64,000 bases of DNA from Acidobacteriota bacterium (lineage in GTDB: Bacteria; Acidobacteriota; UBA890; WLXD01), in NCBI GenBank assembly GCA_963666055.2, contig CAXWPH010000009.1, positions 1 to 64,000 of the forward strand. The letters run 5' to 3'. Made by a program: the position numbers and the translations under genes. The notes under the pieces were generated by a model that was given only the letters and a program-made list of their open reading frames with translations, did not search any database and was not told where the DNA came from. Shown one piece after another: positions 24,880-30,124 of this stretch (position 1 is the first letter of the stretch; each line of letters starts with the position of its first letter).

Positions 24880-25569
24880 TTGAAGTTGCGCTCGCTTCCC
24901 GCCGCTTTGCTGTTGATCGGGCTGGCGCTTGCGCCGAACGCAGCAAACGCATCGCCGGCAGGAAGCCTGATTCCACCGACGGCGGATGAGGAAAACAATC
25001 GACGCGGCGCCGGGACCGTCGGTCTGTTTGATCTTCAGCAGACCATCCGTCGCAGCGACCGGCCGCCTTCGGACCCGGTCGGTGGGTTCCAGATCAGCCT
25101 TATCGGAGCAGTGCAGATGCGTGGTTCGGCTTCAGGTCAGGCGGGTATCGCCTTCAGCTATTTCAAGCGCTCGACCGGCAACGTGGGCATCGAGTTCGAG
25201 GGCGGTATGACGCGCGGTCCCAACGGCCAGATCAACCACGGGCTGATCAGCTTCATCTTTCAGTCTGGCGGGCGGTCCAGCAAGCTAGCACCTTACCTGG
25301 CGGTGGGCGGCGGCATCTTTCATGCCAACGAGCGGTTGCGGGATCGGGTGGTCGAGGCGCTGCCAACGTTCGGTATCGAGCCGATGGAAGGGCTCGAGAC
25401 GGGCCCGTTGATCGCCTTCGGGCTCGGCTTTCGCTTCTATCTTTCGGAGAAGGTATCTTTCCGCGCCGACTATCGGGAGATGAAGGCGATTACCAGTGGC
25501 AGCGGGAGTCTGTTCAACCGCCTCTTCTCGCTACGCCGCATCGGCGGATTCCTGTCGTTCCAGCTCTAG
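24880..25569 (+). CDS. outer-membrane beta-barrel protein
   Basis: Signal peptide, amphipathic strands (PYLAVGGG, FGLGFRFYL, FRADYR), C-terminal FLSFQL. Confidence 0.75.
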   Translation: MKLRSLPAALLLIGLALAPNAANASPAGSLIPPTADEENNRRGAGTVGLFDLQQTIRRSDRPPSDPVGGFQISLIGAVQMRGSASGQAGIAFSYFKRSTGNVGIEFEGGMTRGPNGQINHGLISFIFQSGGRSSKLAPYLAVGGGIFHANERLRDRVVEALPTFGIEPMEGLETGPLIAFGLGFRFYLSEKVSFRADYREMKAITSGSGSLFNRLFSLRRIGGFLSFQL

Positions 25570-25843
25570 TGGCCTGTAACAGATGATCGTTGCATATCGT
25601 GGTGGCGAAATGGGTCCGGATGCCAGGCGCGACGACGAGACGATGTTTGCCCATCGTGGAGGAGGAGCAACGCCGCAGACGGGCCGATTTCGCCGCCATC
25701 CTGCGGACAGATGGGCAGTTGCGGGCGATCTCGGCGTTGCGCCTCGTCGACGATGCCCATTGCATCGCCTTCCTCGCCGCGCCTTGATCTCACCCGCAAA
25801 TCCCATCTGCGATATGTAACAATTATCTGTTACAGGCCGCTAG
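25566..25843. mobile_element. MITE-like / REP-like inverted-repeat element
   Basis: CTAG at both ends; about 34-bp imperfect terminal inverted repeats (CTAGTGGCCTGTAACAGATGATCGTTGCATATCG vs CGATATGTAACAATTATCTGTTACAGGCCGCTAG); two inverted copies of an internal unit shared with element 50-218. Confidence 0.75.
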
Positions 25844-25859: not shown

Positions 25860-26010
25860 ATGGCAGGGTGTCCGCACCCGCAAGCGAAAGGCCGCCGGGC
25901 ACCTGCCGGGCTAGCTCACCGGGTTCAGAGCGAGGGTCCCCTGTTTCCCCTTCCGTCCGACGTTGTCCCGGTTCCGCGAGCCAGCCCGACTGATGCCCGG
26001 CGGCCTCACG
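25860..26010 (-). ncRNA. candidate sigma54-dependent small RNA (long hairpin, GGA-rich loop)
   Basis: Long stem 25889-26006 starts about 4 nt after the predicted +1 of a sigma54 promoter; seven GGA motifs; no convincing ORF. Confidence 0.6.
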
Positions 26011-26020
26011 ACTCTCAAAG

Positions 26021-26036
26021 TGCAAGTATGATGCCA
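26021..26036 (-). promoter_or_regulatory. sigma54 (-24/-12) promoter
   Basis: Minus strand TGGCATCATACTTGCA = GG-N10-GC, matching TGGCA-N6-TTGC; immediately downstream of a bEBP gene. Confidence 0.8.
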
Positions 26037-26216
26037 ATCCAAGGCTGGCGAGAACACAGAGACCGCTCCAGCATCGTCGAGCAACGGTAAGTCCCCTCCT
26101 GTCAGCGGCTTCGCCGCAGCAGCGCAACCTCGCTGAGGAGCGCGGCGCGTTCCGATCACGAGTCGGACAACGGTGATCTGCGTTGCCTTCGACGGCGGGT
26201 CGACGACGCGGTGTGG

Positions 26217-27743
26217 TCAGCGTCGATGCGTCGACGCCTCTGCCTCGGGCACGTCGATGCGGTGCCGGCGCAGCTTGTGGTACAGCGAAGTGCGCGGGAT
26301 CCCCAGCACCTCAGCGGCTCGTGTCTTGTTGCCCTTCACCGCAGCGAGCACGCGACGAATATGCGCCGCGACAACGCTGTCGAGCTTGGCGTCGCCCAGA
26401 TCAGCTTCCGACAGCGCCGCATTAGCGTCGACCATCGGCGCCTCTACTTTGCTCATCGACGCGCTGATCGCCGGCGGTAGATCCTCGACTAGGATCTGCG
26501 CCGACTCCGACAGCACCGCTGCACGACGGACAGCGTTACGCAGCTCGCGCACGTTGCCCGGCCAATCGTAGCCGATCAGCGCTGCCGAGGCGTCGTCGCT
26601 GAACCCGGTCGGGCCGCGGCCATTCTCTTCCACGAAGTCACGTCGAAAGTGCTCGGCAAGCAGCGGGATGTCCTCGCGACGCTCGCGTAGCGCCGGTACG
26701 TGCAATCCGAAAACATTGAAGCGATAGTAGAGGTCCTCGCGAAAGGAACCCTCGTCGACCAACGTGCGGAGGTCCTGGTTGCTGGCCGCGATGAAACGCA
26801 CGTCGACGCGTCGCGCACCGCGATCCTCCCCTACTTTCTGGATCTCCCCGTACTCCAGCGCGCGCAGAAGCATCACTTGCAATCGTGGGCTCATGGCCTC
26901 GAGCTCGTCGAGAAACAGTGTGCCGCCGTCGGCCAGCTCCATCTTGCCGGCCTTGTCCCGGTGTGCACCAGTGAAGGAGCCCCGGACATGCCCGAACAAC
27001 TCGGATGCGAGGAGGTCGTCGGCGAACGCGCCACAATTGACGATCATCAACTCGCGATCACGTCGCGGCGAGAAATAGTGCACCCCGTGGGCAAGGAGCT
27101 CCTTGCCCACGCCGCTCTCCCCGGTCACAAGTACGGGCTCCTTGGTGGGCGCAACCCGTTTGACCAGCGCTTCGATGTCGCGAATCTGCTTCGAGATCCC
27201 GACAATCTCGACGTTGTAACCGCGGCGGCGAGAGTAACGCGTCAGCCACAAGCGTCCGATGACCATCGAGATGGCCTCGGCGAACTCCTCAAGCCGTTCC
27301 CGATGCTCGCGGGTATAGTGGCCGCGCTCCCGAGACTCGACCGATAACACGCCGATCGCCTCGCCCTGCAGCCGGATTGGAACCACCAGGTCGGCCTGTA
27401 CATCCTTGAAGGCCGGGAAGTAGTACGGGTCCTCGCTAACGTCGTTGGACATGTAGGTCTGGTTGTTGTGGTAGACCCACGTGATGATGCCAGGTGACTG
27501 GGTGTCGAGCTCCAGCAGGTTCGGAAGGTCGGCGAGCAACTCTCCTTTTTCGCGGTGGGCAATCAGCCGAACATCGCCGTCCTCGTTCTCCATCACGAAG
27601 ATCGAACCGTAGTCGCTCTCGGTCAGCGTCTTGGCGAAGTCGACAAAATCCGCCAGCACAGGCTCGAGCACCTGGTCGCTGGAATAGACGTCGAGGCATA
27701 CTTTCTGGAGAATGTCGCGCGACAGCGTATCGGATGTCGACAT
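26217..27743 (-). CDS. GAF-domain sigma54-dependent Fis-family activator (bEBP)
   Basis: N-terminal GAF, GESGVGKE, ELFGHVRGSFTGA, FREDLYYR, WPGNVREL, C-terminal Fis HTH. Confidence 0.95.
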   Translation of the reverse strand: MSTSDTLSRDILQKVCLDVYSSDQVLEPVLADFVDFAKTLTESDYGSIFVMENEDGDVRLIAHREKGELLADLPNLLELDTQSPGIITWVYHNNQTYMSNDVSEDPYYFPAFKDVQADLVVPIRLQGEAIGVLSVESRERGHYTREHRERLEEFAEAISMVIGRLWLTRYSRRRGYNVEIVGISKQIRDIEALVKRVAPTKEPVLVTGESGVGKELLAHGVHYFSPRRDRELMIVNCGAFADDLLASELFGHVRGSFTGAHRDKAGKMELADGGTLFLDELEAMSPRLQVMLLRALEYGEIQKVGEDRGARRVDVRFIAASNQDLRTLVDEGSFREDLYYRFNVFGLHVPALRERREDIPLLAEHFRRDFVEENGRGPTGFSDDASAALIGYDWPGNVRELRNAVRRAAVLSESAQILVEDLPPAISASMSKVEAPMVDANAALSEADLGDAKLDSVVAAHIRRVLAAVKGNKTRAAEVLGIPRTSLYHKLRRHRIDVPEAEASTHRR

Positions 27744-27752
27744 GCGGTCATT

Positions 27753-29219
27753 CTATCTCGACTGCCCGACCGTCTCCGCGTCCGTGACGACAAGCGATAG
27801 CTGCTGCAGCTCCGGCGACCATCGCAAGCCCCAGGCGGCCGCAAAGTCGACACCGAGCACGGCCTGTGGTGCCACCCAGCTCGAGCCAGGAGGTGCACCA
27901 AACTGGGACTCGACTCGATAGATGTATGGCGCCCCGAAACCACCGAGTCGGGTGGCGAGTATGACGCTCTCTGTGATCCGACGGTCGATCGGCTCGGCAT
28001 CGTGTACGGTCGCCTGCACCAACCCATCGTGGCTGATGCGTGACGGCCCCGACAGGTCGATGCTTGCCGCCACCCGTACCGTCAACAGTCGAGGAAACAA
28101 CAGCAGCTGCGCCTCCAGCCCATCGATGGGCACGCGTACATCGATCCAGTGCATTGCACGAGCCTTGGGCTCGCTCGACCACGGAGCATCGCTGATGGCC
28201 GACAAATCGAGGCGCGGCGGCCTGATGACCATGCGATCCTCGCTGAGCCACAACTCCCAACCGAGCGTCGAGATAACGTCGAAACCGAGCTCGCCATCGG
28301 CGCCGTCCACCGCCTGCAGCACGAATGGTACCGCCGCCGAAGTCACCCGGCCCAGCTCGACGGGCGCGACGGCGTGGCCGCCACTTTCCGGGTCGCCGTG
28401 GACGACCAGTCCGACCCGGCCGACCAACTCGGGCGACAGCGTCGATCGCGGCGACTGAAGCGACAGTCTCAGGCGTGCCGTCGCGCCACCCATGCGGACA
28501 ACAACGATCGGCGCACCCGCAGCATCACGTTCCAACGGCACCGTCCCGGCAACGCCATTCCAAACGATCGCCGCCCCGCCGGAGTGCTGCGGCACGGTTG
28601 CCGCCGCCGCCGCCGCGGTCGCCAGTCGCGAGCGAGCGGCCGCATCTTCCGAAGCTTCGGCGGCGGCGCTCAAGTGCTGGGCCGCCGCGGTCGAATTCCC
28701 CTGTCGCCAGGCTAGCGCAGCCAGCAACCGCAGCGCCCGGGCTCGCGTCCGTTGGTCGGTTGCGAGCTGCTCGGCCAGCGATCTCGCCTCATCGAGCCGC
28801 CCGAGGGCAGCGGCGGCGCGGGCTAGCCCGAGCATCCCCTCCGATGACCCCGATCCCGCAGCACGACGAAAGAAGCTCTCAGCTTCGAGCAGTTCGCCAG
28901 AGCGCCACAGCGCCCGTCCGAGCCAACTCCAAGATTCAGGTCCCGGGGCGCGACGTTCGTACAACCTTGCCCTGGTCAGCGCGGCGGTGATCTCGCCGGC
29001 GTCCAGAAGCTGACGCATTTCGGACTGAACCAAGATCGCCGGGCTGTCGATACCGGGTCCGGCTCCCGCACAGCCCCAAGTCCCGACAACAAGCGCCGCC
29101 CGTCCGAGCGAGCTCAATGACCACGTCAGGGGGCGTAAAAGCCGGCCCAGCCCACTTCTGTCGCCTCGGGATCCGATGCTATGATCTGCGCTGGAAGGGA
29201 GGCATATGAAGATCGACAA
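27753..29219 (-). CDS. TPR-containing putative lipoprotein with degenerate aspartyl-protease-like domains; true start probably downstream
   Basis: WGC lipobox-like motif, TPR-like helices, DGELGFDV / AVLGVDF motifs; no intact DTG. Confidence 0.6.
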   Translation of the reverse strand: MSIFICLPSSADHSIGSRGDRSGLGRLLRPLTWSLSSLGRAALVVGTWGCAGAGPGIDSPAILVQSEMRQLLDAGEITAALTRARLYERRAPGPESWSWLGRALWRSGELLEAESFFRRAAGSGSSEGMLGLARAAAALGRLDEARSLAEQLATDQRTRARALRLLAALAWRQGNSTAAAQHLSAAAEASEDAAARSRLATAAAAAATVPQHSGGAAIVWNGVAGTVPLERDAAGAPIVVVRMGGATARLRLSLQSPRSTLSPELVGRVGLVVHGDPESGGHAVAPVELGRVTSAAVPFVLQAVDGADGELGFDVISTLGWELWLSEDRMVIRPPRLDLSAISDAPWSSEPKARAMHWIDVRVPIDGLEAQLLLFPRLLTVRVAASIDLSGPSRISHDGLVQATVHDAEPIDRRITESVILATRLGGFGAPYIYRVESQFGAPPGSSWVAPQAVLGVDFAAAWGLRWSPELQQLSLVVTDAETVGQSR

Positions 29220-29451
29220 CTACCTGTCTCGCTGGCATGAGTTTCGCGAATGGTCAGCGACAAACCGGCCCGATATCGTACCTTCGGTAGAGAATCTCGG
29301 CTGCGAACTTCGTGGCGCGATCACCCAATACCGGCAAGCCACCGACCCCAACCAGCGCCAGATCCGCATGGATCTCATCAAACAGCACTACGATCGCGTG
29401 GTCCAGTGGCACATGGAGGAGATCCTATCCAAGCTCGATCGCGAGCCCTAG
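29206..29451 (+). CDS. hypothetical protein
   Basis: RBS GGAGG plus ATG, 81 aa, plausible composition. Confidence 0.65.
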   Translation: MKIDNYLSRWHEFREWSATNRPDIVPSVENLGCELRGAITQYRQATDPNQRQIRMDLIKQHYDRVVQWHMEEILSKLDREP

Positions 29452-29777
29452 TAGGCCTCTGCGCGTAGGTAGACTCCTGCGGCGATTCGGGAACGAGTCC
29501 GGCCCAACGATTGCACCTCACATTCGACCCGCTGGTACAGGCCATTGGCGACGTCCTCGAACTCGTCGAGCCGTTCCATCTCGGCGGCCGCAACCTGGCG
29601 GAACAGCAACCCGACGATCTGCTGGCCGGCCGCCGGGCGCGCCTGATAGTGGCCGGTCGCGGGGTTGATCTCGCGCTGGTGGTCATGCAGGAGGGCCGGG
29701 ACACAGATCGGCATCCGGCCTAGTAGGCCGACGATGATCTCCGCCCGGCACAGCTCGCCGTAGACGAACAGGTTCAA
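29448..29777 (-). CDS. gamma-glutamylcyclotransferase/AIG2-like protein
   Basis: Motifs LFVYGEL, LDEFED...YQR. Confidence 0.75.
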   Translation of the reverse strand: MNLFVYGELCRAEIIVGLLGRMPICVPALLHDHQREINPATGHYQARPAAGQQIVGLLFRQVAAAEMERLDEFEDVANGLYQRVECEVQSLGRTRSRIAAGVYLRAEAY

Positions 29778-30124
29778 CCGTCGGCGTCCGCCGCCGCCTG
29801 AAGTCGATGCGCCAGCGTCTTGATTTCCCGCCGCTGCGGGAAGCTGAGATGCTGTCCCAGATCGGATTCGATGCGCAACATCAGCAGCGCTGCGTCGACA
29901 GCGGTGGCCACCAGCTCATCCGAACGCCCGGCTCCATTGGCCGGTGCATCGGTGCCACCGGCTCCTGGCTGTGACTCGACCCAACGCTCGAGCTCATCGC
30001 GATCGAAGCGTACGTTGAAGCCGAGCTTGCGATGCGGCACTTTGCCGGTCCGGACCCACTCGTACAGTGTCTTGGGCCGGATGCCGAGGAACTCTGCCGC
30101 CTGATCGACGCGCCAGAGAGTCAT
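29774..30124 (-). CDS. excisionase-like helix-turn-helix (HTH_17/BldC-like) protein with C-terminal extension
   Basis: VDQAAEFLGIRPKTLYEWVRTGKVPHRKLGFNVRFDRDELERWV. Confidence 0.88.
   Translation of the reverse strand: MTLWRVDQAAEFLGIRPKTLYEWVRTGKVPHRKLGFNVRFDRDELERWVESQPGAGGTDAPANGAGRSDELVATAVDAALLMLRIESDLGQHLSFPQRREIKTLAHRLQAAADADG

Follow-up and report, generated by a model that had tools for sequence, protein, structure and literature searches.

A rod-shaped small RNA encoded behind a sigma54-dependent GAF activator gene in Acidobacteriota, with predicted pairing to a co-regulated lipoprotein leader

The window analysed here, a stretch of 64,000 nucleotides from an Acidobacteriota genome, encodes a small RNA with the shape of a long closed rod immediately behind the gene of a sigma54-dependent GAF-domain activator. 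The reality of this structured RNA gene is hardly in doubt. Modelled folds and duplexes suggest that the RNA works as a base-pairing anti-antisense activator, whose exposed G-rich loop would free the Shine–Dalgarno sequence (SD) of a target leader; we give this reading a probability of about 0.5. The predicted target is a lipoprotein mRNA, and the lipoprotein gene carries the same enhancer motif as the RNA. The features of the locus are collected in Table 1.

Table 1. Features of the RNA locus in the window
Feature	Position	Strand	Basis
Rod-shaped small RNA	25889..26006	-	fold z; pairing and compensatory change in 35 sequences
Predicted transcript of the rod RNA	~26010 to ~25885	-	ends predicted only
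Near-invariant G-rich core, predicted pairing region	25928..25961	-	invariant alignment columns; duplexes with lipoprotein leader
Exposed loop segment CAGGGGA, predicted seed	25937..25943	-	unpaired probability in 35/35 homologues
Sigma54 -24/-12 box	26021..26036	-	19/19 genomes, 21/21 metagenomic homologues, 0/36 chance matches
GAF - sigma54 AAA+ - Fis-type HTH enhancer-binding protein, 508 aa	26217..27743	-	Pfam GAF_2, Sigma54_activat, AAA_lid_14, HTH_8
Three palindromic enhancer-like sites YG[AT]C-N8-G[AT]CR	26190-26205, 26204-26219, 26221-26236		enrichment vs shuffles

Results

Structure and conservation of the rod RNA

The rod begins no more than 4 nt from the predicted transcription start and is about 120 nt long. 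Its outer helices comprise 15 + 13 + 6 = 34 bp and carry an apical region of 43 nt. The folding energy is -98.3 kcal/mol (z = -4.9), which none of 200 shuffled sequences equals. A rod-like hairpin of more than 30 bp at this place had been proposed in a preliminary description of the DNA, and both its extent and its stability are borne out. The same description saw a loop of 43 nt. The size of the apical region is right, but its predicted fold consists of two short weak helices with an 11-nt capping loop. No large central bubble is predicted in the rod. The segment CAGGGGA is the only one that is open in all 35 homologues, with unpaired probabilities between 0.74 and 0.99, and the apical GGACGGAAGGGG is mostly paired (unpaired probability 0.29-0.38).

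In an alignment of 35 distinct sequences 95% of the cells are paired, and 14 of the 24 outer-stem pairs show compensatory change. Neither 500 shuffles nor any slid register gave a comparable result, in a shuffle test that is inflated by kinship among the 35 sequences. About 34 nt of the apical region are near-invariant in this alignment, equally so in family 2, and the 5' strand of the upper stem, GGGYYGGCU, is fixed in both families. The apical pairs vary little, which is compatible with the predicted apical helices. A core variant, GGAA to GAAA, is found in 3 of the 35 sequences and keeps the GNRA word. The rod contains six GGA trinucleotides at this locus and four to seven among the homologues. 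Seven had been counted before, six in the rod and one in a following hairpin. The count itself stands, whereas the hairpin with the seventh (25879-25866) and the GCGGA bulge are not conserved in homologues.

A search of Rfam 15 at E up to 5 and 10 gave nothing at the gathering threshold, and the best matches, at about 20 bits, were unrelated microRNA hairpins; no known housekeeping RNA was hit.

Distribution and genomic surroundings

With a covariance model built from the 35 homologues (R2), a single locus was detected in each of 19 out of 26 genomes of the class, an uncultured group of Acidobacteriota; all 12 near-complete genomes are among the 19. The possibility that the hairpin is a multicopy repeat detached from sigma54 motifs is thereby answered: none of the 19 genomes has a second copy of the rod, and a sigma54 box always precedes it. 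No match was obtained with R2 among 139 sampled genomes outside the class, where stricter filters were applied. Among 275 genomes outside the class, five encode an activator of about 700 aa (40-43% identity), and its neighbourhood gave no convincing match to the RNA. The unpublished genome G047 may be among the negatives outside the class, and no positive claim uses it. Viral contigs gave two chance matches only, and 12 of 13 database records with the core are titled Acidobacteria or Acidobacteriota. Contigs of relatives were also found in RNA libraries X1-X5 and X8 at depths of 2-14. Some lie inside the rod, many extend beyond it and activator-like parts are covered too; at this low depth they are uninformative on ends or strand.

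As described before, no credible protein gene follows the RNA. The next gene (24880-25569, plus strand) encodes a beta-barrel protein and converges on it. Between genomes the downstream genes differ in identity and direction, which makes a leader function improbable. The beta-barrel gene is set apart from the RNA by a separate element, a 278-bp MITE-like multicopy repeat with inverted ends (25566-25843), which accounts for the multicopy BLAST hits, has at least nine near-full copies in the genome at 94% identity or more and is absent from the same place in the closest relative, G002. Upstream of the activator, a block of a TPR gene, an 81-aa orphan, a GGACT-family gene and an excisionase-like HTH gene (27753-30124) stays together in both families; the 81-aa and HTH proteins are 45-95% conserved. 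In genus g9 (G015, G016, G017 and G025; 1.2-2.5 Mb, 55-88% complete) the RNA, the activator and the beta-barrel target are all absent, which suggests joint loss.

Further observations concern genome G000 as a whole. ARAGORN reports a tRNA with a CUA anticodon, labelled Pyl (C5:65608-65685), and two tRNA-SeC genes (C6:7932-8029 and C13:66090-66187). Runs of at least 20 G or C occur on several contigs (for example at C15:345751 and C7:140341) and are possibly assembly artefacts.

Promoter, activator and enhancer

The -24/-12 box reads TGGCATCATACTTGCA and predicts +1 near 26010, the same placement as in the preliminary description. It precedes the RNA in every one of the 19 genomes, and in a pattern scan of metagenomes and viruses it stood before 21/21 true homologues and 0/36 chance matches. 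The gene rpoN, for which a check had been advised, is present in the genome.

Among the 26 genomes, the 19 with the RNA are also those with an activator orthologue of at least 64% identity, whose gene lies within about 260-365 nt of the core. This gene shares the strand of the RNA and stands upstream of it, except in one genus, where it is inverted and divergent. The expectation of covarying homologues beside orthologues of this gene was thus confirmed in 19/19 genomes. The loop G[AS]FTGA (GSFTGA or GAFTGA) and Walker B are intact in 63/63 homologues, and the GAF region has 63 relatives, each with at least 57% identity. The GAF domain has no conserved Cys, and its best solved relative is Ta0848 (E 4e-8). 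Against the NorR model the protein scores 309 bits, below the 476-bit cut-off.

The palindromes YG[AT]C-N8-G[AT]CR occur 105 times in 32 upstream regions, compared with a mean of 11 in 200 base-shuffled sets. Every one of the 32 regions has at least two, and 79 of the 105 sit 150-210 nt before the box. At the loci with an inverted activator gene, L007-L009, the enhancer remains with the RNA. From this linkage and co-distribution we infer that the activator would bind at these sites. A semi-conserved segment at 26090-26110, located 45-75 nt before the box in many homologues, resembles a putative IHF site. Altogether, the earlier proposal of a sigma54-promoted RNA tied to a GAF activator is strengthened by the joint occurrence of RNA, activator and box in 19/19 genomes, the covarying stem and the upstream enhancer, and control of the RNA by sigma54 and the neighbouring activator is very probable.

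A regulon with a shared enhancer

An enhancer weight matrix run over the 5.7 Mb genome identifies two triple clusters. One is the RNA locus, which was in the training set, and the other precedes a sigma54 box and the gene of a GWxTD-domain exported protein. With a relaxed pattern, 4 of 287 sigma54-like boxes in G000 reach a two-site enhancer score of at least 27, and the next box scores 17. These four lead to the RNA, the GWxTD-domain protein, the beta-barrel protein (weak PF13505) and a lipoprotein of 124 aa (C15:1542205). The last is Gly/Tyr-rich and belongs to no Pfam family, and its lipobox-like cysteine was recognised by reading the sequence.

Box and enhancer are kept in 11/11 family-1 GWxTD orthologues and in 0/18 other GWxTD loci. 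Of the six lipoprotein loci five have them, as do 18 of 21 beta-barrel loci, where the three exceptions are one cut by a contig end, one with a variant box and one without the gene start. The beta-barrel gene was detected in 20 of the 26 genomes, every one of the 19 RNA carriers among them, and the lipoprotein in 6 of 26 (five proteins in a separate count). Further exported proteins carry the enhancer motif in family 2. Three genomes, only 69-81% complete, have enhancer sites without RNA and activator. The composition of the regulon points to a function in the cell envelope.

Some regulon leaders share another motif. In family-1 GWxTD leaders and family-2 beta-barrel leaders (G000 C15:2034000-2034090, L149-L161; L215-L222), the sequence CGCUCCC stands some 25-35 nt past the box, and many folds place it in the internal loop of a hairpin. 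A cis element or a protein site would be possible roles for this motif, and it shows no significant pairing with the RNA. Its enrichment (3/10 vs 59/3297) is not counted as evidence, since the pattern was written after seeing the leaders. A sigma54 leader before G000 C11:185382 contains AAAACAGGGGGAGACCCCCC, which is similar to the apical loop of the RNA.

Predicted pairing with the lipoprotein leader

The lipoprotein was chosen by its enhancer before pairing was tested. When 32 regulon leaders were scored against the core of their own genome, the five lipoprotein leaders, from all five genus-1 genomes, gave z values of -2.7 to -3.8, and none of the remaining 27 paired significantly (z of -2.3 or higher). 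Among start regions, counted crudely as SD-bearing regions, the lipoprotein site ranks 2/5919 and 1/3307, and 0/1000 dinucleotide-shuffled cores pair with the leader as well as the real one. In the reciprocal test, with 30,653 purine-rich 31-mers sampled at every sixth position, only the antisense of the target itself and nine poly-G runs beat the core.

The predicted duplex with the leader (G000 C15:1542165-1542220) is split into two blocks with about 4 nt between them. In block 1 a GGUYCCYG-like stretch of the leader pairs with the RNA loop, and in block 2 a pyrimidine stretch pairs with GGAAGGGG. Across genus 1 the leaders differ largely by C/U changes that preserve pairing with G. In all five genus-1 leaders a hairpin with a 5' strand complementary to an exposed part of the RNA is predicted to hide the SD, and block 2 is the predicted SD-hiding strand in five of six homologues. 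With block 2 held open, predicted SD accessibility rises from 0.00-0.52 to 0.73-0.86. In this form the side idea of an SD mimic, raised in the preliminary description, gains support as a predicted pairing with the anti-SD strand of a co-regulated leader.

The site is kept in 6/6 lipoprotein homologues. The sixth, from G005, belongs to another genus, is 41% identical and has no detectable box or enhancer, and was left out of the 32-leader test for want of a box; 2/500 shuffles pair as well there. For this homologue the modelled binding leaves the SD hidden (0.26 to 0.33). A similar two-block site is found before an OmpA-family lipoprotein gene (leader at G000 C11:68430-68545), with sigma54 box and without enhancer, in 3/3 genus-1 genomes examined and is absent in 4/4 family-2 homologues. 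One OmpA-family homologue (L281/L282, G002 C9:1720037-1720707) is split over two frames, by a frameshift or an assembly error.

Several results limit the strength of this pairing. With unfolding costs included, the lipoprotein is 16th among the 500 best sites that were rescored, and dozens of genomic sites have comparable duplex energies when position is ignored. Any SD-like RNA will in part be complementary to a leader that hides its SD. Kinship among the five genus-1 genomes means that they do not count as independent, and the RNA core is invariant among them, with no two-sided covariation. Among 59 sigma54 leaders scored in family 2 (G011-G014; drawn from 112 boxes, some of which were left out, and restricted to those with a downstream SD and ORF) nothing comparable was found. 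A pattern search for family-2 targets gave matches at the control level, and pairing was absent at 20 additional candidate enhancer loci drawn from the two families. Because family 2 yielded no target, the invariance of the core across the whole class still lacks an explanation. A search for long perfect antisense targets gave no 14-mers and a few scattered 12-mers. Weighing both sides, we consider pairing between RNA and lipoprotein leader in genus 1 slightly better than an even bet.

Discussion

The proposed mechanism can be outlined as follows. Sigma54 polymerase under control of the neighbouring GAF activator would transcribe the rod RNA, and the same activator would drive both the RNA and the lipoprotein gene via the shared enhancer. 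Pairing would start at CAGGGGA on the C/U-rich stretch of the target leader and could spread to GGACGGAAGGGG as the weak apical helices melt. The hidden ribosome-binding site would then be released and translation raised, and the outcome would be a coherent feed-forward loop. The very stable rod may take the place of an RNA chaperone. There is apparently no Hfq: TIGR02383 was not found in G000, which is 95.7% complete.

Other functions have to be weighed against this one. The preliminary description favoured sequestration of CsrA/RsmA, for which the four to seven GGA per rod would speak. None of the 26 class genomes, the 12 near-complete ones among them, yielded a csrA gene (PF02599) in a search that was positive in 3 of 14 reference genomes used as control. 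Nor does the rod present its GGAs in a series of hairpin loops: a single one is reliably open, most are paired or not conserved, and 31 of 35 homologues have an ANGGA count of 0-1. With no csrA found in these genomes and no set of conserved, exposed GGAs, this function is extremely improbable. A role as decoy or scaffold for some non-CsrA protein, which would bind the invariant apical domain, the leader match then arising from shared likeness to ribosome-binding sites, deserves more attention, and we regard it as unlikely rather than implausible. It would explain why about 34 nt of core, including predicted non-canonical positions, and GGGYYGGCU are fixed beyond the needs of a seed, and why a class-wide mRNA target was not found. 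Several regulon leaders also share CGCUC(CC) with the invariant UCGCUC of the RNA. No candidate protein was found, however: besides CsrA and Hfq, Ro60/TROVE (PF05731) was not found in G000, and on this ground a Y RNA was rejected as well. The reciprocal best match and the G005 site also favour real pairing. If a protein decoy were nevertheless the true function, its partner would be an unrecognised RNA-binding regulator.

A pairing RNA could also act mainly by repressing other envelope mRNAs, with the lipoprotein as a minor or lineage-specific target, like MicA and RybB, which are the repressing arm of sigmaE. The regulon consists of exported proteins, the OmpA-family site ends 5 nt before the SD, where either sign of regulation is possible, and the SD is not freed at the G005 site. 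Yet the best-ranked site lies on the anti-SD strand rather than on the SD, and the G-rich seed is unable to pair with a purine-rich SD, so that we hold predominant repression to be distinctly improbable. A diverged SRP (4.5S) paralogue or a 6S-like RNA, acting on Ffh/FtsY or RNA polymerase, is highly improbable. The rod is similar in size to SRP RNA, and in an end-to-end alignment with the SRP RNA of its own genome 10 of 500 shuffles are as good; the shuffle control breaks self-complementarity, and the likeness is thus overstated. Retention of the GNRA word and the exported products of the regulon would also fit. Against this, the SRP and 6S models give no match at E up to 10, R2 misses the genuine SRP RNA, and a normal SRP RNA exists elsewhere in the genome, which led us to reject an SRP RNA. 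A distant origin of the RNA from SRP RNA is possible in view of the weak likeness. A 6S RNA was rejected because our rod has no large central bubble and a better candidate stands behind zapA. That rod, at G000 C1:92251-92450 (L046), has a central bubble and is likely a 6S RNA missed by RF00013, which has no match in the genome; the gene next to it we take to resemble rny. Finally, many family-2 loci are followed by a same-strand gene, as a cis-acting leader, terminator or mobile repeat might be. In family 1 the next gene is convergent, in family 2 the followers vary by genome, and the single-copy rod is separate from the neighbouring multicopy repeat; the chance that the rod is such an element is minute.

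Activation by anti-antisense pairing thus remains our preferred reading, and it can be extended, tentatively and with more doubt than confidence, to a class of chaperone-free activators. Here a rod of about 45 bp would present an SD-mimic tip, which unzips its apical helices and invades two pyrimidine blocks, as a second, translational key in the sigma54 envelope regulon of a class-specific GAF sensor; the RNA gene would perhaps be a duplicate of the SRP RNA gene. No matching riboregulator was found in Rfam or in the searched literature; subscription journals and the supplementary tables of motif surveys could hold one. Sequence alone has provided a testable circuit, with sensor-activator, motif, four-member regulon, RNA and named target site, and the whole circuit could be rebuilt in E. 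coli, a sigma54 host. If the reading is true, a long closed rod achieves translational activation without Hfq and would offer a compact RNA switch for engineering.

Comparison with known systems

The closest system in genomic arrangement and mode of action is NrsZ of Pseudomonas, encoded in the ntrC-PA5126 intergenic region. It is an RpoN-dependent sRNA of about 226 nt, processed and NtrB/C-dependent, and is reported to switch on the translation of rhlA by opening a 5'UTR structure in which the RBS is held (PMC8395346). Common to both are the sRNA gene directly behind the gene of an enhancer-binding protein and, for the mechanism proposed here, activation by RBS melting. Our RNA differs in its one-component GAF activator, its single rod of about 120 nt and a predicted target that shares the enhancer, and there is no Rfam similarity. 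In Myxococcus xanthus, the sRNA of the nla19-pxr locus, about 108 nt long, is encoded behind the gene of a sigma54-dependent regulator, likewise with its own sigma54 promoter and conserved synteny. Pxr is described as a triple stem-loop that is under a response regulator and blocks development (PMC5568312), and we found no match to our RNA in sequence or structure.

The mechanism proposed here is that of the GlmZ-glmS and DsrA-rpoS pairs, where the sRNA competes with an SD-hiding hairpin (anti-antisense activation). GlmZ uses Hfq (PMC2267818), whereas Hfq was not found in G000, and the predicted seed of our RNA is located at the far end of its long rod. The NorR-norVW system of E. coli resembles our locus in its GAF-AAA+-HTH activator, three enhancer sites and sigma54 promoter (PMC2831303). 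Here, the output includes an RNA, the activator falls short of the NorR model score, and its GAF domain has no conserved Cys. With Rsm-titrating RNAs, which depend on multiple GGA sites for the Rsm protein (PMC8395346), the RNA shares several GGA trinucleotides; it differs from RsmY/RsmZ and CsrB-type sponges in that CsrA was not found in its class, its GGAs are not spread over multiple loops and it forms a single rod.

By sequence or fold the RNA is outside the NrsZ, Pxr, GlmZ and DsrA families. Its conserved box, linked intact activator and upstream enhancer sites would place it, judged by these genomic features, among the sRNAs controlled by sigma54 and enhancer-binding proteins, together with Pxr, NrsZ, CrcZ and GlmY.
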